Notes: a model not told the origin generated them from the letters alone. 64,000 nucleotides of DNA from Malacoraja senta (GCA_038087875.1 CM075989.1:7380001-7444000); one strand, 5' to 3'. Shown: positions 2,362-61,056, numbered from the stretch's first letter. A program made the numbers and translations.

Positions 2362-3218
2362 CCATTAAACAAAGGACAAAGGACAAAGACGTTTATTGTC
2401 ACATACACCAAATGGTGTAGTGAAATTTGTCTTGCCATGCAGCACAAATAGACACAACATTAAAGAAATTTAACATAAAACATAAAAACATCCCCCCACA
2501 ATGGTTCCCACTGTGGGGGAAGGCACAAAGTCCAGTCCCCATCCCATGTCCACCCATAGTCAGGCCTATTGAGGCCTCCACAGTCGCCTTCACGGAGGCC
2601 CGGTGTTCCAGGCCGTTCTCGGCGGGTGATGGTGCTCCGGCGTCGGGAGAATCCTCTCAGCGGCTTGGGACACCTGGAACGGCCGCCTCCTTACTCGAGA
2701 CCGCGGCTTCCGAAGCCAACAGGCCGCGCTGAGTGGAGCTCCACCACTGGCGATCTCGGCGAGAGATCCCAGGCTCCCGTTGTTAAAGTTCAGCGCCGCC
2801 GCCCGCAGACCCGCAGACGCGCAGCTCCGCGATGTTTCACCTGCGGGCTCAGCTCACCGGAGTTCCAGCGCGGCGACCCGGGCAAGGCATCGCCCGCTCC
2901 GCTCCGCGATAGCGCTCCAGCACTGTGCCGCCGCCGAAGCCGAGGTCCTGGCCTGTCCCCTCAGGAAACGCCGCTCCAGGCCCGCTGGTAGGCCGTGAGG
3001 ACGGGTCGAAGGTGCAGCCCGGAGAAAAGCTGCCTCTCCGACCAGGTAGGGACCCTAGAAAGTAGTTTCCCCCCCTCCCCCCCCCCCCCCCCCCCCACCC
3101 CCCACATAAAAAGGACTAGAACTCCTAAAAAAACAAACTAACTAACTAAAAATAAGAAAAAGATGAAAACGGACAGCTGCAGGCTGGGCAGCCATACCAC
3201 ACAGGACGGCGCCCCCTA
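2362..3218 (-). mobile_element. Unclassified GC-rich retroposon (body type A, Rex-like tail)
   Basis: Head, T-tract, G-tract, GC-rich body, hairpin, then aaatttcac...gtgacaataaa(gtccttt)n. Homologous to 48040-48815. Confidence 0.7.
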
Positions 3219-3433
3219 GGACAACTGTCCCCTCTCACCTAAAGAAACATAGAAACATAGAAAATAGGTGCAGGAGTAGGCCATTCGGCCCTTTGTGCCA
3301 GCACCGCCATTCAATATGATCATAGCTGATCATCCAAAATCAGTACCCCGTTCCTGCCTTCTCTCCATATCCCTTGATTCCGTTAGCCCCGTTATAGCCA
3401 TGTCTTCTAGTGTTGGACTATCTACCCTATCTG

Positions 3434-4218
3434 ATGTGGTGTGGCGGCGCCTATCGGCAGCGGCTCAACTACAGTCCATCTGTCTTTTTTAAATTTTTGT
3501 CTCATTAAATGTATGTCTTGACTCTAGTTTTCATTATTTTTCTTTAGCTGGTGTATATGTGTGGGGGAGGGGGGGGGAACCATTAATCTCTTCCGTCGGG
3601 TCTCCGGTGTCGTTGGGCCTAACATCGTGGAGCCGGCGGCGGTCTCCAGCCAGGACCAACCTGAGGGCTCCAGTCGCGGAGCCTGCGGACTCGCCGTCGC
3701 GGAACTGGCCGTCTCCAGAACGGGAAGAGCTGTGGTGGCGCGCGGCTGCGACCCGACTTCGGAGCTTCTTAGGCTCCGGCTGCAGACCTGGTGGATGGTA
3801 ACATCGGGAGCTTGCAGGTCCCTGGTGGGAGACCGCTTTTCGTAGCTCCCGCAATGGCAACTTCTCCTGCCGGAATCGCGGGGGTTTAAAGGACTCGGAA
3901 CGGAGCCTAACATCGCCCGGCGCGGCTTAACGGCCGCGGGACTTACCACCGCCCGCCGGGGGCTTTAACATCGGGAGCCCCAGTCGCCTCAACGCTGCAG
4001 TTGGACTGGCTGGACCGTGGGAGAAGAACAAAGGGAAGAGATAAGACCTTGCCTTCCATCACAGTGAGGAGATGTTGGAGATTCACTGTGATGGATGTTT
4101 GTGTAAATTGTGTTAAGTGTGGGGTCTTGGTTTTATTTGTAATGTAAGACTGTAGAAAATGCAATTTCGTTCAAACCAAGCTGTTTGAATGACAATAAAA
4201 GGCATTCTATTCTATCTA
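3434..4218 (+). mobile_element. Unclassified GC-rich retroposon (body type B, Rex-like tail)
   Basis: Homologous to 48828-49672; 13-bp stem tccatcacagtga / tcactgtgatgga; tail aatttcgtt...tgacaataaa. Confidence 0.7.
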
Positions 4219-4389
4219 TGGCTCTCATAATAATATCGTCTCCCCTCAACCTCCATTCTGGAGAAAACCACGCAGGTCTATACAACACCTCTCCCAGTAG
4301 CTGAAACACTCTAATCCAGGCAGCATTCTGGCAAACCTCCTCTACACTCTCTCCAAAGCCTCCACATCTTTCCTGCAATTTACCAAATA

Positions 4390-4732
4390 ATGAAAGGTCT
4401 GGATAGAGTGAATGTGGAGAGGATGTTTCCACTAGTGGGAGTCTCATAATAAATGGACGTACACTTAGAATGGAGATGAGGAGGAATTTCTGTAGCAAGA
4501 GGGGGGGGTGAATCTGTGGAATTAATTATCAGAGACGTCTGTGGAGGCCGTCATTGGGTATTTTTAAAGGGGAGATTGTTAGTTTGTTGATTGGTAAGGA
4601 CGGGGAGTCCTTACTAAATGGGGAGAAGGCAGGGGAATGGGGTTGAGAGGGAAAGATAGATCTGCCATGATCGAATGGTGGAGTCAACTTGATGGGCCGA
4701 TTGGCCTCATTCTGCTCCTATGTCATATGAAC
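4390..4732 (+). mobile_element. CR1 LINE 3' end
   Basis: gaatgtggagaggatgtttccactagtggg...atgggccgattggcctcattctgctcc, shared with other copies. Confidence 0.72.
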
Positions 4733-4789
4733 TGATGTACTGGGGGCCACCATGGATTCACACTGGATTCATTAAGGGAGAACCAAGTA

Positions 4790-5532
4790 ATAGGACAATG
4801 AAATTCTTGCTTTGCTTTAGCACACCAGTACATAGTAGGCACGAATACTGAACAGATCAATGTGTCCATGTACCATTGCATAAATATATACACACACATG
4901 AAAAATTAAACTGATAAAGTGCAAACAAACAGATTATTGGCTATTAATGTTCAGAGTTTTGTCCGAGCCGAGTTTAATAGCCTGATGGCTGTGGGGAAGT
5001 AGATATTCCTGAACCTGGTCGTTGCAGTCTTCAGGCTCCTGTACCTTCTACCTGAAGGTAGCGGGGAGATGAGTGTGTGGCCAGGATGGTGTGGGTCCTT
5101 GATGATACTGCCTGCCTTTTTGAGGCAGCGACTGTGATAGATCCCCTCGATGGTAGGGAGGTCAGAGCCGATGATGGACTGGGCAGTGTTTACTACTTTT
5201 TGTAGTCTTTTCTGCTCCAGGGCGCTCAAGTTTCCGAACCAAGCCACGATGCAACCAGTCAGCATGCTCTCCACTGTGCACCTGCAGAAGTTAGAGAGAG
5301 TCCTCCTTGACATACCAACTCTCCGTAATCTTCTCAGGAAGGAGAGGCGCTGATGTGCTTGCTTTATGATTGCATCAGTGTTCTCGGACCAGGAAAGATC
5401 TTCAGAGATACGCACGCCCAGGAATTTGAAGCTCTTGACCCTTTCCACCATCGACCCGTTGATATAAACGGGACTGTGGGTCCCCATCCTCCCCCTTCCA
5501 AAGTCCACAATAGCTCCTTGGTTTTGCTGGTA
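4790..5532 (-). mobile_element. Rex1/Babar-clade LINE 3' fragment
   Basis: ORF 4951-5508: FKFLGVRISEDLSWS...QRLSFLRRLR...HPGHTLISPLPSGRRYRS...FPTAIRLLN. Confidence 0.88.
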
Positions 5533-5774
5533 TTCCTGGTTTCCTTGGTAATGACCTGTTGCTTCAGTTTGCTTGGGATTAGATGTTGGGGTTCCCCTGC
5601 CAGGTTGAGTCAGGGTTTGGTTTGTAGATAATGGTGCAGATGATGCTGCCAGGACTTGCCTATAAACACTTTCTTTTGTGAGTCACAAAGGAGTCTGCAG
5701 AGCCACAAGGCTGCATGAGTCACCCAACTACTGGAGGAGATGGGGAGGATCATTGCAGCGGGCAGGGCTGGCCT

Positions 5775-6911: not shown

Positions 6912-7437
6912 TTAGTTTAATTTTGTTTTTTGCCACGTGTACCGAGGTACAGTGAAAAACCTTTTGTTGCGTGCTATCCAGTCCCGAGAAAGACTATGCA
7001 TGATTACAACCGAGCTGTCCACAGTGTACAGATACATGATAAAGGGAATAACGTTTAGTGCAAGATAAAGTCTGGTTAAAGATGGTCCGAAGGTTTTTAA
7101 TGATGTAGATGGTAGCTCAGGACCACTCTGTAGTTGTTGGTCGGATGATTCAGTTGCCTGATAACAGCTGTGAAAATGCTCTGAATCTGGAGGCACATCT
7201 TTTCACACTTCTGTACCTCTTGCTTGATGGGAGAGGGGAGAAGAGCGAGTGACTGGGGTGCGACTTGTCCTTGATTATGCTGGTGGCCTTGCCGAGGCAG
7301 CGTGAAGTATGGGATGGAGTGAATAAAAGGGAGGTTGGTTTGTGTGATGGTCTGGGCTGCATTCAAAATTCTCTGCAATTTCTTGTGGTCTTGGATGAAG
7401 CTGTTCCCAAACCATGCTGCGATGCATCCTGATAAAG
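6912..7437 (-). mobile_element. Rex1/Babar LINE 3' fragment with tail
   Basis: LSGCIAAWFGN...HPSHSLFSPLPSSKRYRS; tail cactgtacctcggtacacgtggcaaaaaac on the minus strand. Confidence 0.82.
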
Positions 7438-7446
7438 TATAAGGTG

Positions 7447-7465
7447 TATATATATATATATATAT
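7447..7465. repeat. (TA)n microsatellite
   Basis: Direct dinucleotide run. Confidence 0.85.
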
Positions 7466-8039
7466 GACTGCTGGTCTTTTGGGCAATTGGGCAGGGAGGT
7501 GGTCAGTGAGGGAGGTTTTTAATCCACCCTGTGTGTAAAAAACGCGTTTCTGATGTGATCGTGGCATTCGTAATAGGAACTTGGTGATGTTGGAGAGATT
7601 TTGTTTTTATGTTTGTGTTAAAGATTTAGTAGGATTACACTGAGTGACAAAGTTGGGTTGAGATCAACCTCCCAGATTGCTGCAGTGGAAATGTCCACAC
7701 AGCTGGCCTATATTGTGTTGAAAAATCGCTGTAATTAAGTAACACCCTATCATGATCTTGATTAAGGTTTGGTTGAAGTTCGGGGACATCTGTGGAACAG
7801 CTGCATCTTACAGTACTGTTCCGGATACAGTGCCAGTTTCGTTGCTCTTCCAACCCATCTTTAGGCAAGGGGAATGGAGGGCCTATTGCTGGCGATTCAG
7901 CTTTTGGTGGTCTTTCCATTGGAGGTATCATTAATTTGTCGCACGTAGAAAGTATGGAAACAAGCTCATCAAGTCCGTGCCAACCATCCACCTCCTATTT
8001 GCCATGAACCTGTATTAATCCTTTCGTTATTATCCCCGC

Positions 8040-11740: not shown

Positions 11741-11949
11741 ACTGATGTGTATAAATTAAAATGTTGATCAGACTGACTAACGCTTTGTACTTTGTTACTA
11801 ATATTAGCAATGTTGGAATTCTATGTAAAGACAGTAAATGAATCTGCAAGATGAACATAAATCCTTCTCCAAAGAACTTCTCCAGATAGATTTTAACAAA
11901 AACAAAATAGTCGGGTCATTTAGTGTAAACAAAATAGTCAGGTCATTTT

Positions 11950-12706
11950 CAAAATAGTCCTCCGTCATTTTCGCCACCTCCAACGTGACCCCACCACTCG
12001 CCACATCTTCCCATCTCCCCCCTGTCTGCTTTCCGCAAAGACCGCTCCCTCCGTAACTCTCTGGTCAATTCTTCCCTTCCCTCCCGCACCACCCCCTCCC
12101 AGGACACTTTCCTTTGCAACCGCAAGAGATGCTACACTTGTCCCTTTACCTCCCCCCCTCGACTCCATTCAAGGACCCAAGCAGTCGTTCCAGGTGCGAC
12201 AGAGGTTCACCTGCATCTCCTCCATCCTCATCTATTGCATCCGCTGCTCTAGATGTCAGCTGATCTACATCGGTGAGACCAAGCGTAGGCTTGGCGATTG
12301 TTTCGCCGAACACCTCCGCTCGGTCCGCATTAACCAACCTGATCTCCCGGTGGCTCAGCATTTCAACTCCCCCTCCCATTCCGAATCCAACCTTTCTGTC
12401 CTGGGCCTCCTCCATGGCCAGAGTGAGCACCACCTTGAAATTGGAGGAGCAGCACCTCATATTCCGCTTGGGCAGTTTGCAGCCTAGCGGCATAAACATT
12501 GACTTCTCCAATTTCCGGTAGCCCTTGCTGTCTCTTTCCCTTCTCAGCTCTCCCTCAGCCCTTGGGCTCCTCCTCTTCCTTTCTCCTTTCTTCTCCCCCC
12601 CCACCCCACATCAGTCTGAAGAAGGGTTTCGGCCCGAAACGTTGCCTATTTCCTTCGCTCCATAGATGCTGCTGCACCCGTTGAGTTTCTCCAGCACTTT
12701 TGTCTA
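11950..12706 (+). mobile_element. Penelope-like element 3' part: GIY-YIG endonuclease plus terminal repeat
   Basis: LIYCIRCSRCQLIYIGETKRRLGDCFAEHLRSV...VAQHFN...EEQHLIFRLGSLQPSGINIDFSNFR* with one frameshift; followed by the hammerhead-type motif. Flanks agtcaggtcattt / agtcaggtaattt. Confidence 0.9.
12614..12646 (+). ncRNA. Minimal hammerhead ribozyme motif in the PLE terminal repeat
   Basis: CTGAAGA-A-GGGT(TTCG)GCCC-GAAAC-GTT: CUGANGA and GAAA boxes around stem II. Confidence 0.65.
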
Positions 12707-19467: not shown

Positions 19468-19886
19468 ATTGACTTCACTTACACCTCACGCTACCTCGGC
19501 AAGGCCAGCAGCATAATCAAGGACGAGCCGCACCCTGGCCACTCCCTCTTCTCCCCTCTCCCATCAGGCAAAAGGTATAGAAGTGTGAAAACGCACACCT
19601 ACAGATTCAGAGACAGTTTCTTCCCAGCTGTTATCAGGCAACTGAATCATCCTACCACAACCAGAGAGCAGTCCTGAACTACTATCCACCTCTTTGTTGA
19701 CCCTCGGACTATCCTTGATCGGACTTTGCTGGCTTTACTTTGCACTAAATGTTATTTTGTGTATCTGTACACTGTAAACGGATCAATCGTAATTACGTAT
19801 TGTCTTTCTGCTGACGGGTTAGCACGCAACAAAAAGCTTTCCACTGTACCTCGGTACACGTGACAATAAACTAAACTGAACTGAAC
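19468..19886 (+). mobile_element. Rex1/Babar LINE 3' fragment, nested in a palindromic PLE-derived element
   Basis: Same family as 6912-7437; ends ctgtacctcggtacacgtgacaataaactaaactgaactgaac. Confidence 0.8.
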
Positions 19887-23408: not shown

Positions 23409-23549
23409 GGGTATTCTACAGGAAAATAATGTTATGTTTGTACTAGCTTGCTAAATAAGACGCTGCTGCTGGTGTATATACACAGTGCAACTCAACATAG
23501 CAATGTACCGATTTAATAAAACCATCTGTTTTTCCTTGTTTTGGAACAG

Positions 23550-39743: not shown

Positions 39744-40106
39744 CAGCATAATCGAGGACCAGCGGTCACTCCCTCTTCTCCCCTCGCCCATCATGCAAAA
39801 GATAGGGACGTGTGAAAATACAAACCTCCAGATTCAGGAACAGTTTCTTCCCAGCTGTTATCAGGCCATTGAATCATCCTATCAACAACTAGAGAGCGGT
39901 CCTGAGTTACTATCTACCTCAATGGAGACTATTGGACTCTTTAATCAGATTTTACTGGACTTTATCTTGCACTAAATGTTATTCCCTTCATCATGTATCT
40001 GTACACTGTGGCTCGATTGTAATCATGTATTGTCTTTCCGCTGACTAGTTACCACGCAACAAAAAGCTTTTTATTGTACCTCGGTACACGTGACAATAAA
40101 CTAAAG
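39744..40106 (+). mobile_element. Rex1/Babar LINE 3' fragment
   Basis: Similar to 19468-19886; tail gtacctcggtacacgtgacaataaactaaa. Confidence 0.78.
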
Positions 40107-40297
40107 TTATAGAGGAATGCTGTAGGAAGGAACTGCAGATGCTGGTTTACACCGAAGATAGACACAAAATGCTAGAGTAACTCAGCGGGACAAGCAGCAT
40201 CTCTCGATAGAAGGAATGGGTGACGTTTCAGGTCGAGACCCTTCTTCTGAAGAAGATGCTGCCTGTCCCGCCGAGTTACTCCAGCATTTTGTGTCTA

Positions 40298-41942
40298 TAG
40301 TGCCCTCCATAATGGTTGGGATAAAGACCCATCATTTATTTATTTGCCTCTGTACTCCACAATTTGAGATTTGTAATAGAAAAAGAATCACATGTGGTTA
40401 AAGTGCAAACTGTCAGATTTTAATAAATGCCATTTCTATACATTTTGGTTTCACCATGTAGACATTACAGCAGTGTTTATACATAGTCTCCCCATTTCAG
40501 GGCACCATAATGTTTGGGACACAGCAATGTCATGTAAATGAAAGTAGTCATGTTTAGTATTTTGTTGCATATCCTTTGCATGCAATGACTGCTTGAAGTC
40601 TGTGATTCATGGACATCACCAGTTGCTGGGTGTCTTCTCTGGTGATGCTCTGCCAGGCCTGTATTGCAGCCATCTTTAGCTTATGCTCGTTTTGGGGGCT
40701 AGTCCCCTTCAATTTTCTCTTCAGCATATAAAAGGCATGCTCAATTGGGTTCAGATCGGGTGATTGACTTGGCCACTCAAAAAATGACAATTTTTAATCT
40801 TTGAAACACTCCTTTGTTGCTTTGGCTGTATGTATGGGATCATTGTCTTGCTGTTGAACTGCCAGCCTATGAGTTGAGGCATATGTGTGAACTTGAGCAG
40901 ATAAGATGTGTCTATACACTTCAGAATTAATTATGCTACTACCATCAGCAGTTGTATCATCCATGAAGATAAGTGGGCCAGTATCTTCAGCAGCCATATA
41001 TGCCCAGGCCATAACACCCCCACCACCATGATTCACAGATGAGGTGGTATGGTTTGGATCTTGGGCAGTTTCTTCTCTCCTCCATACTTTGCTCTTGCCA
41101 TCACTCTGATATAAGTTACTCTTCGTCTCATCTGTCCACAAGACCTTTTTCCAGAACTGTGGTTGCTCTTTTTAGTACTTCTTGGCAAACTGTAACCTGG
41201 CCATCCTATATTTGCGGCCAACCAGTGGTTTGCATCTTGCAGTGTGGCCTCTGTATTTCTGTTCATGAAGTCTTCTGCGGACAGTGGTCATTGACAAATC
41301 CACACCTGACTCATGAAGCGTGTTTCTGATCTGTCGGACAGATGTTTGGGGATTTTTCTTTACTATAGAGAGAATTCTTCTGTCATCAGCTGTGGCGGTC
41401 TTCCTTGGCCTGCCAGTCCCTTTGTGATTAGTAAGCCACCAGTGCTCTCTTTCTTCTCAATGATGTTACAAATAGTTGATTTTAGTAAGCCTAAGGTTTG
41501 GCTGACGTCTTTAACAGTTTTATTCTTGTTTCTCAGTCTCACAATGGCTTCTTTGACTTTCATTGGCACAACTTTGTTCATGTTGATAAACTGCAATAAA
41601 AGTTTCCAAATGTGATGGAAAGACTGGATGAAAGACTAGGTGTTGAGAGCTCTCTTATACCTGCATTAAGGAGGCAATTAAACACACCTGAGCAATTACA
41701 AACATCTGTGAAGCCATGTGTCCCAAATATTATGGTGCCCTGAAATGGGGGGACTATGTATAAACACAGCTGTAATTTCCACATAGTGAAACCAAAATGT
41801 ATAAAAATGGCCTTCAATAAAACCTGACAATGTGCACTCTAACCATATGTGATTTTTTTTCTATTACAAATCTCAAATTGTGGACTACAGAGGCAAATAA
41901 ATAAATGATGGGTCTTTGTCCCAAACATTATGGAGGGCACTG
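40298..41942 (-). mobile_element. Tc1/mariner DNA transposon with long IR/DR-type TIRs (about 225 bp), decayed
   Basis: TA at 40296-40297 and 41943-41944. Left end tagtgccctccataatggttggga; right end tcccaaacattatggagggcactg. Internal repeat ccataatgtttgggac near 40505 and its complement near 41720. Confidence 0.93.
40554..41596 (-). pseudogene. Frameshifted Tc1 DD34E-type transposase
   Basis: Fragments in three ORFs: HTH region (KEAIVRLRNKNKTVKDVSQTLG), WTDETK, QQDNDPIHT and WPSQSPDLNPIEH...CKGYATKY. Confidence 0.92.
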
Positions 41943-42884
41943 TATCTTTAATGGAGGAATGCTATATGTGGACCAGTTTTCATTAAGATGAAGTCAAACC
42001 ACATTGCTTTTTGAATGTCAACCTGCTAACCTTGTTGATCATGTATCCTGTTTAGAAATGAACGTTCTGTTTTTATAACCTTGATGTGGGCCCTCGGGAC
42101 TTGAGCTGCTTGCTGGGATTTGCCTCACCCTGTTTAGTCTTCCCTTCCTTGACAGGGGAGCTTGTTCTGTGTGGATGTGGTGCTTCTCTTCAGTTCATCC
42201 ATTTCTCATGTACATCACAAGGCAACGCTGCTCCATTCTGCCCAGAACTTCAGCAAAGGATCATAAGAGTAGAATTATTATTATGTTTAATATTATTAAC
42301 ATTATACTTATGGACGCCTTTCAAAGACTCTCAAGAACACCTTACAAAATTTAATAAGCAGATTACAAAACATATAAGCAGAATAAAACAAAAACAAATA
42401 GTAGGGACATCAACAACACACAATTCAAAGAGAGAGCAGAGGCAGCTAATCGGGCCAGCGTTCACTCTCCCGTCCGGCAGCCATCTTGAGGACAAAACAA
42501 ACAAAACACCTTTTAACATTTGAACATCCACTGTGGTGGAAGGCGATTCAGATGCTGCAAGTAGCAACAAAGTGTGTAATACAACCTTGCATCTATAGTT
42601 GACTTTCTGAAGTTCACCAGTCCCTGTGTTGAGATTGTAATCTCTTGCATCTGTCAGACCAGTTGGCACCATGCTTGACTGGAAGATCCCAGCTGACTTG
42701 CAATAAACTACTCAATAGGTTGGGAAATTGTTTTGGAAGGTGTCCGTCTACAAGACTACTGTGACAGCACTTCCAAAATAACTATTTGGCTGTGAATTGC
42801 TTTTGGATATCCTGAGAACTGAAAACGTTTCAAAGTCATGGACATTTGTTCTTTCCATCTGTTGTAACAGTGGAAATGTATGAG

Positions 42885-43520
42885 AAGTTCAAGTTCGCGT
42901 TGATCGTCACTTAACCGATTAAGGTACAGTGAAATTTGAGTTACCATACAGCCATACTAAGTGAAAAGCAACAAGGCACACAGCCACATAAAATAAAATT
43001 TAACATAAACATCCACCGCAGTGGAATCCCCATTCCTCACTGTGCTGGAAGGCAATAAAGTTCAGTCATCTTCCTCCTTTGGTTACCCGTGGTCGGGGCC
43101 TTTGAACCCTCCGCAGTTCGCCGCTGCCGACCGTCCAATGTTCAGGCCCTTGCGTCGGGATGATCGAAACTCCGGCGTCGGGATGGATCGGAACACTCCG
43201 CAACATGGAGCTCCAGAGTTGGACGCTTCTGACCGGAGACCGCGGCTTCACGGTGTTAAAGTCCATGGTCGGAGCCCTTTCACTGGCGTTCCTTGACAAA
43301 GGATCGCAGACTCCACGATGGTAAGTCCGCGCTGCACCCGCGGCTTGAAGCTCCAGGCCGGTCTCCAGGAAAGGCCACACCACTCAATGTTGTAGGCCGC
43401 AGGGGGGACGGAGATGCAACACGGGGGAAAAACTGCATCTCCGCCGAGATAAGTGGCTGAAAAAACAGGGAAGGGACGAGACAGACTGTTGGCAAGGCGG
43501 CCATTACGGGCGCCACCCAG
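42885..43520 (-). mobile_element. Unclassified GC-rich retroposon, divergent body
   Basis: Same hairpin flanks (gccttcc...ggatg on the minus strand) and an aaatttcactgtacc tail. Confidence 0.65.
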
Positions 43521-45455: not shown

Positions 45456-47782
45456 GTAAGTGGCCATCACATAAACAAACACACAAGTTGCAAGTCTGTC
45501 TTAAGGGACCAATGTGATTTAATTGTTATTTTTGTTCAGTATGTATGGAACCATCGTTGTGAATTCCACAGCTGCAGACCTGAAATTGGAAAACCACAAG
45601 GCTTAGGAAAGGATGAACCCAACAAAAATATGTGGACATGTTAGGAATTCCTGTTTGCACACAGTAACTTCACCAATCTACAGCTCAGCATATCTAGCTG
45701 CCCATTCAGCTTTATCGCTGATGGAACAATTGGCTTCTTATGCTGTAAAATGCCCAATTAACAGAGTGAGATCTTCCTTTTAGTGCTTAGTGATACAAGA
45801 TAGTCTGTGTCCTTGGATCCAATTCCACTGGCCCCTTTGGATGGAGATATGTTGCAAATTACTTCCGGGTTCCAGGATTATGTGTGCTAATTACATATGT
45901 TTTAACAATGTTAATAAAGCACTGAAATTGACCACTTGTATACTATATCTTCATGGGACGGTTTCTGAGTCAGTGTGGACTGATATGCTGCTGCATGGAA
46001 TCCATGCTGTATCTCTAAACAACTCAATTGAAAGTCAACTGTTCTAGAAACATAGAAAATAGGTGCAGGAAGGGGCCATTCGGCCCTTCGAGCCAGTACC
46101 GCCATTCATTGTGATCATGGCTGATCGTCCCAAATATATCATCAATAAAAGTGAAACGAGCAGTTAGGTGCTGAACCATAAATCATTGAATATGCAACCT
46201 TGTGGGAGCTGTATTGGTGAAACCGCTGCATGCAAAGAAGAAACTGATCACAATTTTCCCAGTCGTTCTCGGCTATTTAGATATCTTTTGATCGAAACAA
46301 CCTTCCCCAAGCCTTGTTGCTTTCTAGTCTTTGCAAGACTTGCCTCTTTTAATTTGTGTCAATGCTGGTGTAATTGGAAATGGCTAGTGCTTTTGTTTTG
46401 TATACAAAGAGGTGCTGGTATGCCGTTCTGCTGCGTAGCATCACAATAAAAGCATTGGAAATGTTCGACTCCATTTTACACAGGCAGTTCTACGGTGTGG
46501 TGAGGAAGGAAAGTTGATGATCAGTTGGTGAGTCAGGAAAGGGAATGGAACAAGAGAAATGGAAACTGAGCTGAAAAGGAAGCGATTCACAGGATCAAAA
46601 ACATTCCTGAGAGGAAAGTGAACATAACAAAACCAGAAAAAAAATGGAAACTTGTTATAAGGCCTGAATTTGGGTGTCTGCATTCGGTCTAGAGAAGGGC
46701 GAAGATCAGTCTCTGTCAAAGCACCAGGCAAGACGAGCTTAAAAATCGGCAGATTCTTGATTAGTACAGATGTCAGAGGTTATGGGGAGAAGGCAGAGAA
46801 TGGGATTAGGAGGGAGAGATGGATCAGTCATGTTTGAATGGCGGAGTAGATTTGATGGAACGAACGGCCTAATTCTACTATACCTTATGAGTTTATGAGC
46901 TTATGCTTGAAGCCTGAAATAAAAGGAGAAATAGCAGGAAGCACTCAGTATGTCAGGCAGCATCTACGGAAAGAGAAACAGAGTTCTCGTTTTAAGCCTC
47001 AGACCCTATTTCAGAACTGGAAAAGAGAAAAAAATCAAGTGGGTTTTTCCCATTAGATCCAGCGAGTTTAATACATCTTCTCGACCTAAAATGTCGACTG
47101 TTCCTTTGCCTCCATGTAAGCTGCCTGGCCTGCTGAGTTCCTCCAGCCGTTTACTTTTTGCACAAGTTAGTTCACACTGCCTGGCGGTGGTGGATGCAGA
47201 TATACAAACAAATGGAATATCTCTGTGGCGAGACCAGTTGTACTAATGAGGCCAGTTAGCAGGGAATTAAACCTCTATCTGTGTGATGTGTCGTATACGG
47301 TGTGCCTGTGAGACATGCAGCACAACAGCAACACAATTGAGAAGGTTGCCTGCAACCAAACTCATCCACAAAGAACACAACCACAAGGAATTAGGATCAG
47401 GGCAAGATCATGAGGCCCCACAAGCCTCCCCTGCCACAATCAGCCTCTGGGCAAGTGCCATGGTCACAACTGATCTATGCTGGGCTCAACGCCTCTGCCG
47501 GTTCCCCAGAGCCTGCAACTCCTCTCCTTCAAATACTTATCCATCTCCAGGTATCTATACCGAATGACAATGTCCACCAGCACCCTCAGGGGCAGAGAAT
47601 GCCAGAGATTCATCACTCTCCAAGAGGAGAAGTTTCTACACACCCCAGTTTTAAATGACTTATCTCGTAAAAATGGGGGGGGGGCAAAAAGAATAATAAT
47701 TTACCTCAACAATAATTGATGATGCGGCAGGACTCCTCTAAATGAGCGAGGTTCTCTGCCATTTATCAAGTTTTTAATGATA

Positions 47783-48815
47783 CAATAATAATAATAATAA
47801 TAATGGATTTTATTTACGGGCGCCTTATACCGAGGTCTCAAGGACACCATACAGAGATTTATAGAAAACATATAATCAGAATTTTAAAAAATAGGTTATA
47901 AAGACCAATACATAAATCAGGGACAGAATTCCTTCCAAAAACACAACAAAAAAAAAGAAAATCAGAAGCACAATTTGAGGAGAGAGCAGCGGCAATTTAA
48001 CGCCAGCGTCCACTCTCCCCTCCGACCGCCATCTTGAACACAGACTAACAAATACAATTACAAACAATTACATACAAAAATCATCCCCCCACAATGATTT
48101 CCACTGTGGGGGAAGGCACAATGTCCAGTCCCCAGCCCCAGTTCACCCAAACAGTCAGGCCAAATGAAGCCCCCGCTATTGCCTCTACGAAGGCCCGATG
48201 ATCCTGGCCGTTCTCGCCGGGTGATGTAGCCCCGGCGTCGGGAGAGTCCTCCAGCAGCTGGGCCAGCTGGAACGGCCGCATCCCTCACCGGAGGCCGTAA
48301 CTACGGCTGGAACGGCCGATTTCCCGCAGGCGTCCGCAGCACCTGAAGCCGACAAGGCCGCGCCGCCTTGGAGCTCAAGGCTCCCGGTGTTGGAGTCGGC
48401 GCCGCCGCCCGCGGATGGTCGCTCCACAGTCCCGGAGGTGTTGAGCTCGGCGGTCCAGCTCACCGGAGCTCCAGCGCGTCGGTCCAGCGCGGCGACCCAG
48501 TCAAGGCATCGCCCGCTCCGCTGCACAGTAGCGCTCCAGCACCGTGCCGCCACCGAAGCTGAGGGTGCTGTGCGGTTCCCGCCAGGAAACGCCGCTCCAC
48601 GCCCGCTGGTAGGCCACGAGGACGAGTCGAATGGGCAGCCGGAGAGAAGGCTGCCTCACCGACCAGGTAGGGACCAGGAAGTGGTTTCCCCTTGATCCCC
48701 CCACATTAAAGGCAAAATAAATAAAAACAAAGACTTAAAGAAAACTAAAAAAACTTAGTAAAAAAGTACAATTAACGGACGGCTGCTGTTTTGCAGCCGT
48801 TCCTCAAGATGGCTC
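47783..48815 (-). mobile_element. GC-rich retroposon, body type A with an L2-like (ATT)n tail module
   Basis: Body aligns to 2480-3070. The 3' module begins caagatggcg and ends gtgtccttgag...aaggcgcc...aaataaaatccattattattatt. Confidence 0.7.
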
Positions 48816-48827
48816 CTCGAGAGAGAC

Positions 48828-49672
48828 AATGATACAATACAATTTATTTGTTGTCATTTGAACCTAAGTTCAAACGAAATTTGGTTTCTGCAGTCATACA
48901 AACAAGTAAAAAGAACCAAGACACAACACAATTTACACAAACATCCATCACAGTGAATCTCCTCCTCACTGTGATGGAAGGCAAAGTCTTGTCTCTCCCC
49001 TGCACTCCCCATTCTCCTCCCGATGTCAAAGTCAAAGCCCCTGGCGGGCGATGGTAAATAAGTCCCGCGGCCATTAAAGCCGCGCCGGGCGATGCAAGGC
49101 CATGCTCCGGGTCTTGATGTTGGAGCCCCCGGTAGCGCTAGCAAGTCCCGCGGCCATTTAAAGCCGCGCCGGGCGATGTAAGACCCTGCTCCAGGTCATC
49201 TTCAACCCCGCAACTCGGGCGGGAGAAGTTGCCGTTGCGGGAGCCCCGAAAAGCGGTCTCCCACCAGGGACCCGCGAGCTCCCGATGTCACCGTCCACCA
49301 GGCCGGCGGCTGGAGCCTCTGAATCTCCGGGGTCGGGCTGCAGCAGCGCGCCACCACAGCTCCTCCCGTTCCGAACTCGGCCAGTTCCGCGATGGTGAGT
49401 AAGTCCGCCGGCTCCGCAACTGGAGCCCAAGGTCGTTCCGTTGGAGGCCGCTCCACGGTGCTAGGCCCCAACGACAACGGAGACCCGACTGAGAAAGGTC
49501 GGGTCTCCCGTGCAGGGAAAAGATTTTAAAAGTTTCCCCCACCCCACCCCCCGCCCCCCAACACATACTCAGTTAAAAAAAACACTATAAACGAAACTCA
49601 AACGAAACAAAAAAAATAAAAAAGACAGATGGACTGCAGAGGCCGCTGCGACGTGGGTCGCTCCGCCCACCC
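48828..49672 (-). mobile_element. GC-rich retroposon, body type B, tandem with the previous copy
   Basis: Homologous to 3434-4218; internal duplication of about 35 bp (agtcccgcggccatt...gccgggcgatg). Confidence 0.7.
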
Positions 49673-49721
49673 AATTTAAAAATATAATTTCAAAAATATA
49701 CTTTATTTGTGATAAACTTAC

Positions 49722-49950
49722 TGGTTGTGAGGAGTTTGCACGTGCTCCCTGTGACCGCGTGAGTTTCCTGCAGATGCTCCAATTTCCTCCCACAATACAA
49801 AGACGTGTGAGTTTGTAAGTTTGTTGACTACTAATGTCAAGGGAATGGATAAGAAAGTGGGATAACATAGAACTAGCGTGAATGATGGTTGGCATTGACT
49901 CAGTGGGCCGAAGGGTGTGTTTCTACGCTGTATCTCTAAAGTAAACTATA
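49722..49950 (+). mobile_element. HE1-like V-SINE, 5'-truncated
   Basis: V-domain plus tail gggccgaagggtgtgtttctacgctgtatctctaaa. Confidence 0.75.
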
Positions 49951-50295
49951 TAAACTAAAATATATGCAGCACAAAAAACATGAACAAAAATCTTCATTTT
50001 TAGTGTCTATAGATTGAATAACGTCATACTCAGTAGAGTTCGTATCTGTCAAGAAAAACACCATTGTCCATCGTGGGCCCCTGGAGTGATATCCCTTTCT
50101 TTGTTAGAATGGTGTCCCCACTGGACTCTGCCTCTCAATGTTCACCAGCCATTGGGATTCTTCTTCTTCTTGCGTTTAAGGCAGCAGAAGTCCGCAGCAG
50201 GGTGATGCCATCCGGTTCGACATCCCTGGGTGCCCGCCTTAAAAAGGGCGCTTGCTCCGGGTTGGCGCCAAGCTGCGGCGCTGCTGCTGCTGTCT

Positions 50296-50712
50296 CTAAT
50301 AATAATAGATTTTATTTTAAGGGCGCCTAATACCGAGGTCTCTAGGACACCTTACAATTTAAGAAACATATAAACATATAATCAGTAAAATAAGTCATAA
50401 AGACAACACCAATACATAAATTAAAAACAGAAATTTGATCCAAAAAAGACAACAACAAAATTCAGAAAACACAACATGAAGGGTGAGCAGCGGCAGCCAA
50501 ACCGCGCCAGCGTACACTCTCCCTTCCGACCGCCATGTTGGACATAGACTAACACAGACTAACACAGACACTTAACAGTACACACAAAATCATCCCCCCA
50601 CAATGGTTACCACTGTGGGGGAAGGCACAAGTTCCAGTCCCCAACCCAGTTCTCCCCAGAGTCAGGCCCATCGAGGCCGCCATAGTTGCCTCTACGGAGG
50701 CCCGATGTTCCT
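50296..50712 (-). mobile_element. 5'-truncated GC-rich retroposon with the L2-like tail module
   Basis: Aligns to 47790-48205. Confidence 0.68.
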
Positions 50713-52139
50713 GTTTGTTTGTTGTCTCTGTTTGTTGTCGTTCACCTGACTGAGGTCAGTTGACAGGGCTCACCACGGGGAGGTCAATAACATGAGCCCC
50801 GCCTTTGGGATTGAAGAAAATAGTTTTGTTTTAAAAAATAAAAAAATAAAGCATTTCTTGAGCTTGTGATTTAGTTTTGTGTCTCTCTGCCCGGGGTTTG
50901 CTCGGCCACACACCTTGTGCAGCTTAGGAAGTGGGGCTTCTCCATGAGACAATGGTCTGTGCTGGTCTTGGGCCAGATTGTCGGGTATGTGGTTGGGTGC
51001 AAAGCAGCAGCTGCCTTTAAGTCAACTTTTCTTTGTTGGCCTGCAGCAACGCAGAGCGCAGGGTCCGTGTGCAAAGCTGCAGCTTTCCAGCTGTGTACAC
51101 AATCGCGGGGCGGCTTTGGGAATCATTACCATCAACCCTAACATCTCAGCAGAGCTCCCCATCTCCCCGTTGCACTTCCACAACACATCACCAACCACCT
51201 GTTATCCTGTGTTGTTGGTTAAAACAGCGCTCTGGGAAAAGATCTCCAGGAACAGGAGAAAGCTCTGAAATCCATAGTGGATCTCAAAATCTTTGACCAT
51301 TTAACCCATGTCTGCTCCATCTCCTGTCGTTCCTGGATCCATTCTCATTGCCTCTTGAGCCAATTTTTCCCATCTGCTCCTGTAACTCTTGCAACACTTT
51401 TGTTGTTTCTTCTAATCTGCTGTTTCTGGGATAACAATCGTGTGACTAACGTCACCCATTCCTTCTCTCCAGAGATGCTGCCTCTCCCGCTGAGTTGCTC
51501 CAGCTTTTTGTGTCTATCTTGGTGATTCACTACTTATTCTTGAATTCTTACCTGAAACCATCGGGGGGGCCGGTACGGCAAAAAGGCGCAGGTGCACAAG
51601 AAGCCCTTGATGTCGATCATTGATGGTGTGTGGCCCATTGCAGGGGCTCACTCCAGCAGCACCACCCACTTGATATTTTGTCAAATAAAGGAATGAGGTA
51701 GCAAGAACTCTGGAACAAAGGCAGAATGTTTGCTAAAGCAAAGTTAGTTTGGCAGCTGAAAGAAAAATGAACCTTATCATTTGAGGTGTGGTACTACATT
51801 TCTGAGTAATGTTAATTTATCACACTGCACTCCAGAAGCAGCTTCCACAGTAGTCTCCTCCCTTGCTAGTTACCTCCGCCCCACCCCTACTGCCTCCTAA
51901 CTGTTACATGTGCCTCCAGTGAAGCACTGGGAGCTGCTTCAACCATTCTTGAGTTCTTCATGCTTCTTCTATGCTCTCTAACTAGTCTCTTTAATCCATT
52001 CTGCCTGCCTTATATTTATTCCTTCCCTTGTTCTAAATTTGGTGGAAATCATTTATTCACACCAAATCTCTCAAGTTCTTGCCTTTCCCACTGTCCAGCC
52101 TATTTAAGTTCTAGCAGCGGTCCAGGCAGCACCACTTTA

Positions 52140-52298: not shown

Positions 52299-52528
52299 CA
52301 GATGTTGCTTTAAACCAAAGATAGACACAAAAAGCTGGAGTAACTCAGCGGGACAGGCAGCATCTCTGGAGAGAAGGAATGGGTGACGTTTTGGATCGAG
52401 ACCCTTCTTCCTGACCCGAAACGTCACCCATTCCTTCTCTCCAGAGATGCTGCCTCTCCCGCTGAGTTACTCCAGCTTTTTGTGTCTATCTTCGGTTTAA
52501 AGCAGCATCTGCAGTTCCTTCCTACACA
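52299..52528. mobile_element. Palindromic PLE-terminus element forming a near-perfect stem of about 100 bp
   Basis: Left arm atagacacaaaaagctggagtaactcagcggg...gggtgacg is complementary to right arm cgtcaccc...cccgctgagttactccagctttttgtgtctat. Confidence 0.82.
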
Positions 52529-52544
52529 CGTTCATGCACACAGA

Positions 52545-53438: not shown

Positions 53439-53703
53439 GGGCGGCGCGGTGGCGCAGCGGTTGAGTTGCTGTCTGACAATGCCCGAGACCCGGGTTCGAC
53501 CTTAACTACGGGTGCTGTCTGTATGGAGTTTGCATGTCTTCTCCGTGACTATGTGCATTTTCTCCGAGGAATCCGGTTTGCTCCCAGAATTCAAAGACGT
53601 GCAAGTTGCTGGTTAATTGGCTTCAGTAAAAATTGTCCCTAGTGTGGAGTGTACAGGGTGATGGCTGGTCGGCACAGACTCTGGCCCAAGGGCCTGTTTC
53701 CGC
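53439..53703 (+). mobile_element. HE1-like V-SINE directly abutting the L2 copy
   Basis: A/B boxes and V-domain; tail cut at gggcctgtttccg. Confidence 0.82.
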
Positions 53704-56043
53704 CTGTCAAATCATAGTGCAATTATATTCGATGCATCTCTGCCTTTCTCTCCCCCAAAATCCCATCTCCCTGTTCACTACTCCTGCTACGTAAACTCTT
53801 CGACTGCCAGTAAATTCTCTGAGGCTCCCATAGCTGCTCCCGATATCTGCACCATTGAGGCATCTCCCCTCCATCTCAGCACTGACAACCTCATTTCTTT
53901 ATTCAATACCATTTGCTCTTCCATCCTGGATTCTGTTGCTCCTCTTAAAATGAAAAAGCCTAAGCCTAAAGGCTGGCCCTGGCTCAATGACACCACCAGA
54001 GCCCTAAGAAGAGAGTGCAGAAAATCAGAGCGGATGTACAAATCTGATAAGCTTCAAATTTCCTTTGAACTTCTGAGAAACAATCTTCTCAAATACCAGG
54101 AAGCAGTAAAGTCTGCGTGAACACAATACTTTTCTGACCTTATCTCCAAACACGCTCATAACTCCAAGGTCCTTTTTAGTACCATTACCTCTATCATATG
54201 TCCTGCCCCCAGTACCAGCTTAGCTGGCCCCCCCTGCTAAGTGCGAAGAATTTACGACATTTTTCACCAGCAAAGTTAAGAACATCAGAACTAATATTTC
54301 CCCTCCCATCCGTGACCTAGCTGTCCCATTGGTCTGTTCTTCTAAATTAGACTGTTTCCAACCCGTTACTCTACCCTCCCTTGTAAAGCTGGTCACCACC
54401 GTGAAACCTGCGACCTGCCCCCTCGAAGTTGTCCCCACTGCCCTTCTGAAGGATGTCATTGCAATAGCCGGTCCCAGCATCCTCTCTATCATCAACAGTT
54501 CTCTGGCCACTGGCACTTCCAACCTGCTTCAAGCACGTGGTGGTCCAGCCCCTCCTGAAAAAACCTAACCTAGACCCCACCTAGACCTATTTCCAAACTG
54601 CCTTTCCTTTCAAAAGTCCTTGAAAAGGTAATTTTAAATCAACTAATGCCTTACCTACACCAAAATGCCATCCTGGAAATTTACCAATCAGGTTTCAGGG
54701 CCCACCACAGCACAGAGTCTGCCTTGTTGAACGTACACAATGACCTGCTTCTCACCATTGACTCCGGCGACTGTGCAATCCTGCTCCTTCTCAACCTCAG
54801 CGCAGCATTTGATACAGTGGACCACACCATCCTAATTGACCGTCTCCGGTACGGGGTTGGTATTGATGGCACTGCACTGAGCTGGTTCATCTCCTACCTC
54901 AAAGATAGGAGTTTCTCTACAAACATAGGCAACTCTTTCTCCTCCCCAGCTAGCCTTTCAGTGGGGTTCCACAAGGCTCCATCCTAGGCCCCATTCTCTT
55001 CTCCCTGTATATGCCCCCCTAAGGCCAAGTCATTCAAAGGCATGGCATTTCCTTCCACTGCTATGCAGACAATACACAACTCTATCTCCCCCTGAAGCCC
55101 AACAACTGATCAATACTCAGCCTTATCCACTGCCTCGAGGATATAAAGTGTTGGATGGCCCATAACTTCCTCCAACTAAACGAGAGCAAGTCTGAGGTCA
55201 TCCTACTCGGCCCCTCGGACTCAATCAAAACGATAGCTGGCAGCCTTGGAAGCCTTATCCCCTTACAAAAATTTCGGCGTGATATTTGACTCCGCGTTGA
55301 AGTTTGACAAACAAGTCAATGCCGTGGTAAAAGCTAGCTTCTTCCAGCATCGCACGATAGCTAAAATAAAACCATTCCTCCAATTTGATGACCTCAAAAA
55401 GATCATCCACTCATTAATCTCCTCCCGCCTTGATTACTGCAACTCCCTTTACACTGGCATCAGCCAATCATCCCTGTCCTGCCTGCAATTGGTCCAAAAC
55501 GCCGCAGCGAGACTTCTGACGGGCACCCGAAAAACGGACCACATCACCCCGATTCCAGCCACTCTCCACTGGCTCCCTGTGCGGTTCAGAATCAATTTCA
55601 AGCTCCTCCTTTATGTATACAAAGCCCTTAACGGGCTTGCCCCCACCTACATAAAAAATCTGCTAACCCACCATTCTACCTCCAGGTCCCTCAGATCGGC
55701 CGACTTGGGGTTACTGACTATCCCGCGGTCTAGGCATAAGCTCAGGAGCGATCGCGCTTATGCGGTTGCAGCACCTAGACTGTGGAACAGCATCCCTCTT
55801 CCCATCAGAACTGCCCCCTCCATCGACTCTTTTAAGTCTAGACTTAAAACTTATTTCTACCTTCAAGCGTTTCTTGAGGTCCTCTGAGGGAGAGCTGCAT
55901 GTATGTATTTATGTTATGTATTGTTAGATCTATGTACCACTGTATGTAGCATGTTAGTACCTGCACTGATGTAAAGCACTTTGGTCAACGAGAGTTGTTT
56001 TTAAATGTGCTATAGAAATAAAATTGACTTGACTTGACTTGAT
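53704..56043 (+). mobile_element. 5'-truncated L2-clade LINE, ORF2 (RT and C-terminus) disrupted
   Basis: YQSGFRAHHSTESALL...LSAAFDTVDH; tgctatgcagacaat (YADD-like); RLDYCNSL...LQLVQNAAARLL...LHWLPV; 3' tail gtaaagcactttg...aataaaa(ttgac)n. Confidence 0.93.
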
Positions 56044-58985: not shown

Positions 58986-59488
58986 ACTCGGTGCGCAATT
59001 GAATGGAATGTTGTTGCCTGGAAATCCAGACAAATGGCCTTGAATGAGCAGACATTGTTCAGTTTCACCAGCCTCAATGTTTGTCTGCCTTTCAAACACT
59101 CACCAGGTAAATAATTGATTTAAATTATTGTGGAACTAGGATTTATCTGCTTGAGGAACCAGGAGCTCAAGGACTCTGTTTCTTGTCAGCAGATCTTACA
59201 TTTGGGCTTCAGTTCAATTATTACTCGTGAATCCAGCTTAATGCTGAACCTAACTCTGGAATAACTCCCTTGCGGAGAGCAGAATTGCCTTGCATCTGAA
59301 CCCCGTAGGTGTAGTATGAATGGACATTGTGTCCCATGAAATAATTAATCATCCATATCTAGATTTATCTGTATTTTGGCATAGGTTATGACAGTTAAAC
59401 AGTGACAAACATTCAAGGACTTCTTCGGAATATGATTAATTGCTACACCACAACATAAGGTGTATCCTTCTTGTAATCTGATTAAACT

Positions 59489-59806
59489 GCACAGTGGCAT
59501 AGCTGGTAGCTCACAGCACCAGAGACCTGGGTTCAATCCTGACCTTGGCTGCTGTCTGTGTGGAGTTTGCACATTCTCCCTGCATCTGCGTAGACTTCCT
59601 CCGTGTGTTCCAGTTCCCTCCCACTTCCCGAAGACTTGCAGGTGTGTAGGTTAATTGACCTCTTTAAAAAATAAAAAAAAAGCTGCCCCCCAATATGTGG
59701 GGAGTGAATGAGTAAGTGGAATGACATCGAACGAGTGTGAATGGGTGACCGATGGTCAGCGTGGACTTGCTAGGCCAAAGGGTCTGCTTCCATGTTGTAT
59801 CTCTAA
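59489..59806 (+). mobile_element. HE1-like V-SINE
   Basis: Head, V-domain and tail. Confidence 0.78.
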
Positions 59807-60082
59807 AAACAATTGATAGCATATCATTGCTATTGATGTTCAACTAATCTACAAAACACCACAGACATGATGTGTGGAAACTCCAGTGGAGAGTTTCAGC
59901 AACTTGCATCCAAAGTCAGTTGCTCCTCTCAAACAGACACTATATATTGAGCATAACCGAGACACAGGAGTAGACCTCTCATCTCTGTCCTCTGATGCAT
60001 TTTTTACTGCCATTATGGCTGATTTCTGCACTTTCCGTCCCTCAGATAAACCTTCATTTCTTGCTTAACAAGGATCTATGTA

Positions 60083-60334
60083 CGGAGACACCATGAACTG
60101 CAGATGTCCCAACCTTGCATTGAACATAAAATACTGGAGTAATTCAGTGGGTCAGGCAGCTTCTCTGGAGGACATGGATAGGTGACATTTCAGGTTGTGA
60201 CATTTCAGGTCAGGACCCTTTGTCAGACTCTACGTCTGAGTCTAAAGGGTCCCAATCTGAAAAGTCACCAATCCATGTCCTCTAGAGATGTTGCCTAACC
60301 CGCTGAGTTACTCCAGTATGTTGTGTTCTATGCC
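60083..60334. mobile_element. Palindromic PLE-terminus element, older copy
   Basis: TSD aggatctatgta at 60071-60082 and 60335-60346. Confidence 0.75.
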
Positions 60335-60784
60335 AGGATCTATGTAACTCTGCCTTAAACGGAGCAGTAAAAGAATCTCTGGGATTTTTGAGGAAGTTGC
60401 AATTAGGCGGGTGAAAGTCTGCATCATCTTCGAGTTAAATAGGCAACCACTTATTTTAAACAGTGATCCCAAGTTCCAAATTTTTCCACCTGAGGAGATA
60501 TCTACTCCACGTCCACCCTGATAACATCTCTCATGGTCTTGTGTGTTCCTTTTGAGTCACCGTTCACTCTTCTGAACTACAGCAGGTGAAAGCCCCTGGC
60601 ACGTCCATCGTCTCATAAGATCCCTTGACCTTTCCAGATATTAGACTTCTATCACTGTACATAGCTTGTGTTGTCAATGTGCTGAATCATACATTTTTTA
60701 AATCAGAGACAACCTATTTAATTACCATTTGAATCAATATGCACCAATCGCCTTTGCCATCTTCCTGGCAACTTGTTCCTTCAC

Positions 60785-61056
60785 TGTCGAGAGGGCCTGA
60801 ACATCAGGCCACCCGTAGCGGCGACTGTGGGGGGCTCGGGAGGCCCCGACCACAGGTGAACAACAGAGGAGGATGACTGAACTTTGGTGCCTTCCCTCAC
60901 AGTGGGAAACGTTGATTCCGCTGTGTGGGGATGTCTATGTTAAAGACTATCGTGTTCTGTGCTCTTTTTTTATTCGTATGGCTGTATGGTGACCACAAAT
61001 TTCACTGTACCAATTGGTACATGTGACAATAAATATCTCTTGTCTCTTGTCTTGTC
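60785..61056 (+). mobile_element. 5'-truncated GC-rich retroposon with Rex-like tail
   Basis: gccttccctcacagtggg...ctgtgtggggatg hairpin; tail aaatttcactgtaccaattggtacatgtgacaataaa. Confidence 0.65.

Follow-up and report, generated by a model that had tools for sequence, protein, structure and literature searches.

The described systems closest to the elements considered here are bipartite derivatives of long interspersed nuclear elements (LINEs), together with the central-domain superfamilies of short interspersed nuclear elements (SINEs). The former lack an open reading frame (ORF), carry a LINE-derived 3′ end, are probably transcribed by RNA polymerase II (Pol II), and may take their head from the 5′ end of the partner LINE (PMC5786205; this and the other papers given by PMC number are cited for the portions consulted). 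In the latter, the CORE, V, Deu, and Meta SINEs, a central block is kept while tails are exchanged between LINE partners (PMC5786205, PMC3531059); such tail exchange occurs around conserved SINE bodies of unknown origin, and the function of conserved central domains in nonautonomous retroposons is an open question (PMC5786205). Here, we analyzed a 64,000-nucleotide (nt) stretch of the genome of the skate Malacoraja senta (GCA_038087875.1 CM075989.1:7380001-7444000; referred to as the window), which is dense in repeats and contains a family of GC-rich retroposons with a short central hairpin. In its workings, the family resembles central-domain SINE superfamilies as well as bipartite LINE derivatives, but it fits the full definition of neither.

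A preliminary description of the window had claimed at least nine copies of this family, and related sequence was present in all nine intervals given (named by their starts as copies 2362, 3434, 35841, 42285, 42885, 47783, 48828, 50296, and 60785), with a full hairpin in eight and a collapsed remnant in one. By body similarity, the copies form types A (2362, 47783, and 50296), B (3434 and 48828), C (42885 and 60785), and D (35841), with the remnant 42285 outside these types. Five are full length. Copy 2362 (A type; 2362-3218, −) has a GC head, a T-tract, a G-tract at 3069-3103, a CpG-rich body, a hairpin at 2489-2524 (−25.7 kcal/mol; z score, −3.45), and a Rex1-type tail, in which the terminal stem-loop and GACAATAAA occupy 2392-2427 ahead of a microsatellite. 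Copy 3434 (B type; 3433-4211, +) has its hairpin at 4051-4097 (z score, −4.13) and a Rex1-type tail, as does copy 48828 (B type; 48828-49672, −; hairpin at 48942-48982), which also contains an internal 55-nt duplication. Copy 42885 (C type; 42885-43520, −) combines a hairpin with three mismatches (43010-43053) with a Rex1-type tail, and copy 47783 (A type; 47784-48827, −) combines a hairpin at 48082-48117 with an L2-type cassette at 47792-48047. The other four copies are 5′ truncated: 35841 (D type; 35841-36217, −; hairpin at 35961-36006, variant tail), 42285 (42285-42545, −; collapsed hairpin at 42527-42545, L2-type cassette at 42288-42498), 50296 (A type; 50298-50722, −; hairpin at 50591-50626, L2-type cassette at 50298-50551), and 60785 (C type; 60785-61056, +; hairpin at 60889-60933, Rex1-type tail). 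The intervals originally given thus hold as related sequence, but target duplications place the start of copy 47783 near 48827 and that of copy 50296 near 50722. The proposed layout of head, T-tract, CpG-rich body, and hairpin was also recovered, with two corrections: a G-tract is present in four of the five full-length copies but not in 42885, and the "LINE-type tail," although LINE derived, is three different tails.

Four of the five full-length copies measure 636 to 857 nt and the L2-tailed one ~1,045 nt, in keeping with the size of interspersed SINEs (<1 kb), and nine copies per 64 kb agrees with the abundance expected of SINEs (PMC3531059). The observed/expected CpG ratio is 0.81 to 0.94 in the copies (0.81 in copy 2362) versus 0.48 across the window. 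In the B and C bodies (3434-4218, 42885-43520, and 48828-49672), a short ACATCG-type motif occurs four to six times amid local duplications of 12 to 55 nt and may represent repeated factor-binding units.

The assignment of the family to LINE-dependent retroposons with a Rex1 tail is well supported. Five copies end in a Rex1-type tail (stem-loop, GACAATAAA, and microsatellite), three in an L2-type cassette, and one (35841) in a variant tail with its own stem, which we take from its layout to be of Rex1 type. For comparison, we used 62 LINE-bearing loci from metagenome contigs (probably fish host DNA), fetched via alignment on a LINE fragment of the window. A profile of the five element tails gave nine matches at an E value of <0.1 among these loci, all on the sense strand and 70 to 340 nt behind the ORF match. 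The tail of copy 2362 and the 3′ end of the autonomous locus L003 were identical in 35 of 39 columns (E = 1.7e-06). Directly before CAATAAA, the same basal stem folds in each of the five element tails and in five of the six tails taken from these loci, the sixth having been cut too short; for this folding, the best 5′ register was chosen for each sequence, which favors pairing. Several full-length Rex1-type loci have a single ORF of 959 to 1,000 amino acids (aa), and in the three ORFs scanned (970 to 1,000 aa), reverse transcriptase (RT) and PF09004 domains were found in all and an endonuclease (EN) domain in two. The peptides of the published Rex1 primers (PMC3728117) lie 552 to 555 nt apart in all six ORFs tested; at the DNA level, the forward primer matched 3 of the 62 loci with five mismatches and the reverse primer matched none. 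Rex1 is described as lacking ORF1, with rays among the taxa of highest Rex1 coverage (PMC13343379), and as having a conserved 3′ untranslated region (UTR) with a repeat tail (PMC6274825), and 3′ stem-loops of this sort are noted for those LINEs and SINEs whose 3′ recognition is stringent (PMC3747384).

The window itself contains candidate partners. A Rex1-type LINE 3′ fragment at 4760-5682 (−; PF09004, E = 1.7e-08), a candidate for the partner clade, has its own 3′ UTR without the central hairpin; the best named protein matches of its 4951-5682 portion are from Leucoraja erinacea (87%) and Rhinoraja longicauda (77%), versus 44 to 63% for teleosts, which points to a skate as the most likely host. 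A second Rex1-type 3′ fragment (6919-7606, −) ends in the same terminal stem-loop and is matched by the tail profile at 6919-6963 (E = 0.0084). Further Rex1-type 3′ ends without the central hairpin, belonging to truncated LINEs or other elements, occur at 19839-19878, 26059-26093, 39478-39545, 40069-40101, and 61695-61756. A LINE fragment at 53662-56040 (+; RVT_1, E = 1.1e-09), which we presume from its protein motifs to be of L2 type, has a 3′ end laid out like the cassette tails. The cassettes of copies 47783, 50296, and 42285 are ~210 to 260 nt long and comprise another GC head, a T-tract, and a tail laid out like the end of this LINE (55970-56024); one pattern, built from these same four sequences and loosened once, matches them only and was reached by 0 of 200 shuffles. 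With its head, T-tract, and tail, the cassette resembles a small separate element, and in the window it occurs only behind the hairpin. Type A occurs in two forms, with either a Rex1-type or an L2-type tail attached immediately behind the hairpin. The original label "unclassified" therefore fits the body and hairpin, which have no match in the 62 Rex1-type loci, but not the tails, whose partners can be named as Rex1-type and L2-type.

Insertion left readable traces at several copies. Target duplications flank four of the nine; they measure 6 bp at copy 3434 (3427-3432 and 4212-4217) and 8, 7, and 5 bp at copies 47783, 50296, and 35841, respectively. Copy 47783 is inserted in the tail of copy 48828 and copy 50296 in a short RTE-type element; copies 50296 and 35841 both sit within host repeats with a readable empty site, and the uninterrupted host motif of the 35841 insertion occurs 27 times in the window. 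The 5′ truncations, microsatellite ends, and short duplications seen among the copies are compatible with target-primed reverse transcription, which is established for LINEs and would be the insertion route here as well. Less favorable to it, five copies lack a convincing target duplication, among them copy 2362, where the 5′ junction and the tail repeat share just 7 nt and form no clean duplication.

No other block is as well conserved across subfamilies as the central hairpin. The pattern GCCTTCC-N20-50-GATG matched 10 times in the window, against 1.24 expected, a count reached by 0 of 100 shuffles; these matches comprise eight distinct hairpins, one duplicate inside 48942-48982, and one unrelated match at 22570. 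A profile and covariance model of the hairpin region detected no further full hairpin in the window, and the pattern had no match in metagenome or viral contigs, a result that says little, since skates are not expected there. Between types, the hairpin arms are 82% identical, compared with 59% in the 90 nt upstream and 61% in the 60 nt downstream (comparison range, 56 to 61% for flanks and 48 to 55% for shuffles). The flanking GCCT, U-U opposition, and ATG, all unpaired or weakly paired, are invariant in all eight hairpins, and loops range from ~3 to 17 nt while the arms stay. In copy 42285, the stem was lost by a deletion between the arms.

Sequencing depth also singled out the hairpin. Sequencing runs were found via a probable large host exon at 23520-25454 (+; a 644-aa acidic open frame without a Pfam match, with seven of the nine copies in the opposite orientation), and none with this exon was listed as RNA. 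Contigs of four runs were aligned to 47650-49800 at 80% similarity; the resulting depth is not a copy number. In run X11, depth was 7 on the unique flank versus ~6e3-2.5e5 summed over the elements. We take depth to indicate only that relatives number in the many thousands and that the hairpin is shared widely. The B hairpin bin was the deepest of the element bins in all four runs and the A hairpin bin the deepest of the A-copy bins in three of four; bins 3′ of each hairpin were lower, so the peak is not just 3′ bias. Runs X1 and X6 (two other organisms; that they are RNA is a guess) cover body and hairpin, indicating relatives but not expression there, and leave bins 47794-48009 (L2-type cassette) and 48730-48801 (head) without cover, at most a weak hint that the L2-type cassette form is lineage specific. 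Of the variant positions, the 40 listed all fell outside the hairpins (181 more exist), and we base no conclusion on this.

The stem had further been described as kept by different but still pairing arms. RNAalifold found this stem unaided, but the A-type 3′ arm has six G residues rather than five, so that one base is bulged relative to type B. In a 13-pair model of the eight hairpins, 100 of 104 cells pair, six pairs are invariant, 3 of 13 change on both sides, and one pair occurs in C-G, U-G, and U-A states; percent paired and covariation score were each reached by 2 of 500 shuffles. A tree of the flanks set type A apart from the rest with 99% support and joined the two C copies with 61%, and under this joining two pairs change twice, whereas without it each changes once, giving ~3 to 5 double-change events. 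The stronger evidence for the hairpin is arm conservation. Folding of the sense hairpins gave z scores below −3.4 in six of eight cases.

A number of observations speak against selection on the stem. The count of double-changed pairs was matched by 136 of 500 shuffles and that of pair types by 372 of 500, and relatedness alone may suffice to exceed the other measures; the grouping on which repeated double changes depend has only the 61% support given above. All eight hairpins come from one window, and the copies were selected partly by the hairpin motif itself. Two sense hairpins fold weakly (z scores, −1.1 and −1.35), the antisense strand folds about equally (−2.2 to −5.2), so that folding does not pick the strand, and G-U departures outnumber A-C departures only 7 cells to 3. 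A tenth, B-like body fragment (~34560-34900, −) carries neither hairpin nor tail, and the L2-tailed forms may be recent chimeras in which the hairpin is a passenger. The claim that the hairpin is selected is thus plausible, with eight sequences and those few independent double changes behind it, and we consider RNA-level selection likely.

The alternative that survives best keeps the element class as described but makes the hairpin neutral: an inverted repeat was inherited, and template switching or quasi-palindrome repair occasionally copies one arm onto the other. The few independent double changes, the folding of both strands, the inter-arm deletion in copy 42285, and the body fragment without a hairpin would all suit it. 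It sits poorly, however, with the invariance of the flanking GCCT, U-U opposition, and ATG in all eight hairpins, with arms that are kept while loops vary, with a G-U pair fixed in all three A copies that would be a mismatch in DNA, and with the depth peaks at hairpins, and we regard it as a minority possibility, if one of some weight, beside RNA-level selection. Two known motifs were also compared with the hairpin and rejected. An iron-responsive element, whose consensus we take to be a CAGUGN apical loop on a 5-bp upper stem, would have only zero to three of five upper-stem pairs in each of the eight hairpins, with CAGUG in the stem and not the loop. The facing CACAGTG/CACTGTG arms equal the V(D)J recombination heptamer, but the spacer is too short for 12/23 signals and the A copies break one arm, and we treat the match as a coincidence.

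No conserved coding sequence was found in the copies. In agreement with the earlier statement that no ORF is conserved, gaps between sister copies keep the frame in only 1 of 20 cases (A pair) and 2 of 14 (B pair); a Pfam scan of seven body ORFs overlapping the named copies gave no match, and the longest sense ORF had no homologue among 286 candidates. The copies therefore share the absence of coding capacity of bipartite nonautonomous LINEs, and none of the nine has a remnant of the single EN-RT ORF of autonomous Rex1/Babar elements. The reported lack of RNA polymerase III (Pol III) boxes stood insofar as the first 150 nt of all five full-length copies lacked a B box in a scan that was positive on one of two tRNA-SINE control copies. 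Each full-length copy contains 5 to 11 runs of at least four T residues, and together with the missing B box this makes Pol III transcription unlikely. No tRNA, 5S, or 7SL RNA head, as required of SINEs including the central-domain ones, was found; Rfam matched no copy, a weak negative, since it also missed the tRNA-SINE heads of the window. ARAGORN called a tRNA-Arg in one copy, a call that none of 300 shuffles yielded, but it is a poor mid-body cloverleaf with mismatched stems, arises from a duplication without counterpart in the sister copy, and is missing from the other eight, and we rejected it. With their LINE-type tails, 5′ truncation, target duplications at four of nine copies, and lack of an ORF and a Pol III head, the copies can be accepted as the nonautonomous, non-tRNA retroposon first proposed.

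The head offers a possible second link to Rex1. In the five full-length copies, a short GC head leads into a T-tract, and full-length Rex1-type loci likewise open with a GC head that is short, followed by a T-rich stretch in which the ORF has already started. Against the 5′ end of locus L006, the head of copy 2362 ranked second of 3,654 tiles, behind an unrelated tile. The remaining 31 of 32 head comparisons gave ranks of 9 to 2,424, and a head profile gave nothing better than an E value of 0.7 on the 62 loci; a Rex1 origin of the head is suggestive only. At 36380-36420 (−), 170 nt upstream of copy 35841, lies the best tile against the Rex1-type 5′ end of L006. No T-tract comes next, the tile cannot clearly be assigned as the head of that copy, and it may be a chance match.

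A second alternative is that the elements are internally deleted bipartite LINEs, their head, body, and hairpin representing the 5′ and 3′ UTRs of an autonomous skate element of the CR1 group that is absent from the window, with the hairpin as a UTR structure belonging to that LINE. RTE, Ingi, Vingi, and R2 provide well-documented cases of such a route (PMC5786205), the tails are of Rex1 type, and a GC head ahead of a T-rich tract is similar in layout to the 5′ ends of loci L002, L004, and L006. However, autonomous Rex1-type loci have nearly no 5′ UTR, their ORF opening within the head; the hairpin profile and covariance model gave nothing better than an E value of 0.6 on the 62 loci; and the two Rex1 fragments of the window have AT-rich 3′ UTRs without the hairpin. 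On the evidence of these loci and fragments, we consider this origin unlikely.

A third alternative makes the conserved block a 3′ splice acceptor set in a stem (a branch-like motif, a pyrimidine tract, and CACAG), with splicing out of upstream exons or the body supplying new 5′ parts, as occurs in SVA elements. CACAG is invariant in all nine copies after a pyrimidine-rich run, and 5′ parts differ strongly between types. Yet no joint fell at the predicted acceptor among the 15 joints listed (49 more exist), a weak test on contigs of other species whose RNA nature is a guess, and genomic copies retain the sequence upstream of the AG that splicing would remove, leaving this reading very unlikely. 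Weakest of all is a self-cleaving or otherwise catalytic RNA, which we find scarcely credible even though the stem covaries and has an invariant base and other retroposons in the window carry motifs like those of hepatitis delta virus (HDV) and hammerhead ribozymes: no copy has an Rfam match at the gathering score or at E values up to 5, the HDV and hammerhead descriptors match other elements and none of the nine copies, RNAalifold gives a single simple stem and one poorly kept helix rather than a catalytic core with a nested pseudoknot or three-way junction, and cleavage at this internal stem would cut the tail from the body.

The explanation that we think reasonably probable as a whole is one of Pol II transcripts that use LINE protein in trans, exchange tails, and carry a central stem acting at the RNA level; that this is a LINE-dependent, Pol II-transcribed composite retroposon superfamily with tail exchange is likely. 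The GC head and CpG-rich body would act as a putative internal Pol II promoter. Rex1 or L2 protein would then recognize the terminal stem-loop and microsatellite in trans, a use suggested by the observed sharing of tails, and the bound protein would prime reverse transcription at a nicked target. In some subfamilies, template switching or recombination may have swapped the Rex1 tail for the L2-type cassette just behind the hairpin. The central stem had been proposed to serve RT recruitment, RNA stability, or catalysis. Because it stands before two tails unrelated to each other and the autonomous elements examined lack it, it is probably not an RT-specific signal; RT recruitment falls more likely to the second, 3′-terminal stem-loop, which is common to autonomous Rex1 LINEs. 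As its putative function, we favor a tail-independent role, either in keeping the transcript stable or in docking it close to LINE RNA under translation. Most speculatively, it may dock or stabilize the transcript in a way that helps it reach newly made LINE protein. A stronger version, which we put forward only tentatively, is that the hairpin takes the part that central domains have in SINEs and is the actual parasitic device of a skate Pol II-transcribed ORF-less superfamily, delivering the transcript to whichever LINE enzyme matches its tail and so allowing moves between Rex1 and L2, and that this would be the first ORF-less element with Rex1-derived ends on both sides.

Among other composite elements, the SVA and LAVA elements of apes are, like the skate elements, GC and CpG rich, noncoding, and mobilized in trans. 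SVA uses L1 and poly(A) and has an array of variable-number tandem repeats, whereas the tails of the skate elements are structured ends of Rex1 or L2 type, and the only duplications found are short and scattered. The comparison with bipartite LINEs is close in the lack of an ORF, the 3′ end derived from a partner LINE, the likely use of Pol II, and a head that may likewise come from the partner's 5′ end (PMC5786205). It ends at the middle part: bipartite LINEs have none of other origin, and the skate elements have a GC-rich body of ~400 to 600 nt and a hairpin without a match in the autonomous elements examined, including the 62 Rex1-type loci. Moreover, their partners, Rex1-type and L2-type, fall outside RTE, Ingi, Vingi, and R2, the only four sources of ORF-less bipartite elements listed in 2018 in the consulted portions of PMC5786205. 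With the CORE, V, Deu, and Meta SINEs, compared here by description and not by sequence, the skate elements share a conserved central block with exchanged tails, but this block is only ~45 to 60 nt with one hairpin, and they have many T runs and no tRNA, 5S, or 7SL head. Without a Pol III RNA head, they are not SINEs as defined in PMC3531059. BuceSINE and ManaSINE2 of birds are also nonautonomous, with a GC-rich 5′ part of unknown origin and a LINE-derived tail (PMC4844689), and bird SINEs that set GC-rich heads on RTE tails are also mentioned elsewhere (PMC7245038, PMC4844689); BuceSINE and ManaSINE2, however, have bipartite AviRTE tails, and a shared central hairpin is not mentioned in the consulted portions of PMC4844689. 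That Rex1 can mobilize a nonautonomous element via a shared 3′ end is exemplified by SINE2-5_NV of a sea anemone, which, unlike the skate elements, has a tRNA head (PMC3747384).

The central domains known so far are long and go together with Pol III heads. In the skate family, conservation falls on a single hairpin of ~13 bp, and the natural stem variants and two alternative tails make a break-and-rescue test simple. If the head is Rex1 derived, one more clade joins the few LINE clades that give rise to derivatives without an ORF. The family also matters for annotation, since its many copies introduce CpG-rich blocks and AATAAA signals. No description of it was found in literature titles and abstracts, a search whose scope left outside Repbase Reports, Dfam, supplements, and most subscription papers; if it is already in Repbase or Dfam, or if the stem is neutral, the family would count as an ordinary repeat specific to its lineage.

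Several other elements in the window deserve mention. The short RTE-type element that received copy 50296 spans 50160-50800 (−) and starts exactly at an HDV-like ribozyme fold (50734-50800), the only match of the descriptor scan; this fold scores 28.8 bits against RF02682, below the gathering score of 44, and its catalytic C position appears to be U. The element is flanked by a 12-bp duplication with one mismatch, and we presume its RTE clade from the ribozyme at its head and the AAG repeats of its tail. An abundant repeat (families D3, D11, and D13) contains minimal hammerhead-like cores, in which helix II has 4 bp, at 10555, 12616, and 14456 (+) and 27408 (−), and a weak GIY-YIG match (E = 0.053) lies at 11924-12487; both fit Penelope-like elements as described in PMC4209133. 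Inverted pairs of the hammerhead-core repeat form long hairpins at 27745-27851 and 52340-52471, with weak microRNA-precursor scores. An abundant tRNA-headed SINE (640-945, +; families D7, D10, and D14-D17), with a B box at +52, is probably the HE1 V-SINE of sharks and rays, a name taken from a table in PMC3747384. Finally, inverted repeats of 228 nt (91% identical) at 40296-40523 and 41717-41944 surround a broken transposase-like frame (40794-41171) without a Pfam match and likely mark a Tc1/mariner-type DNA transposon.

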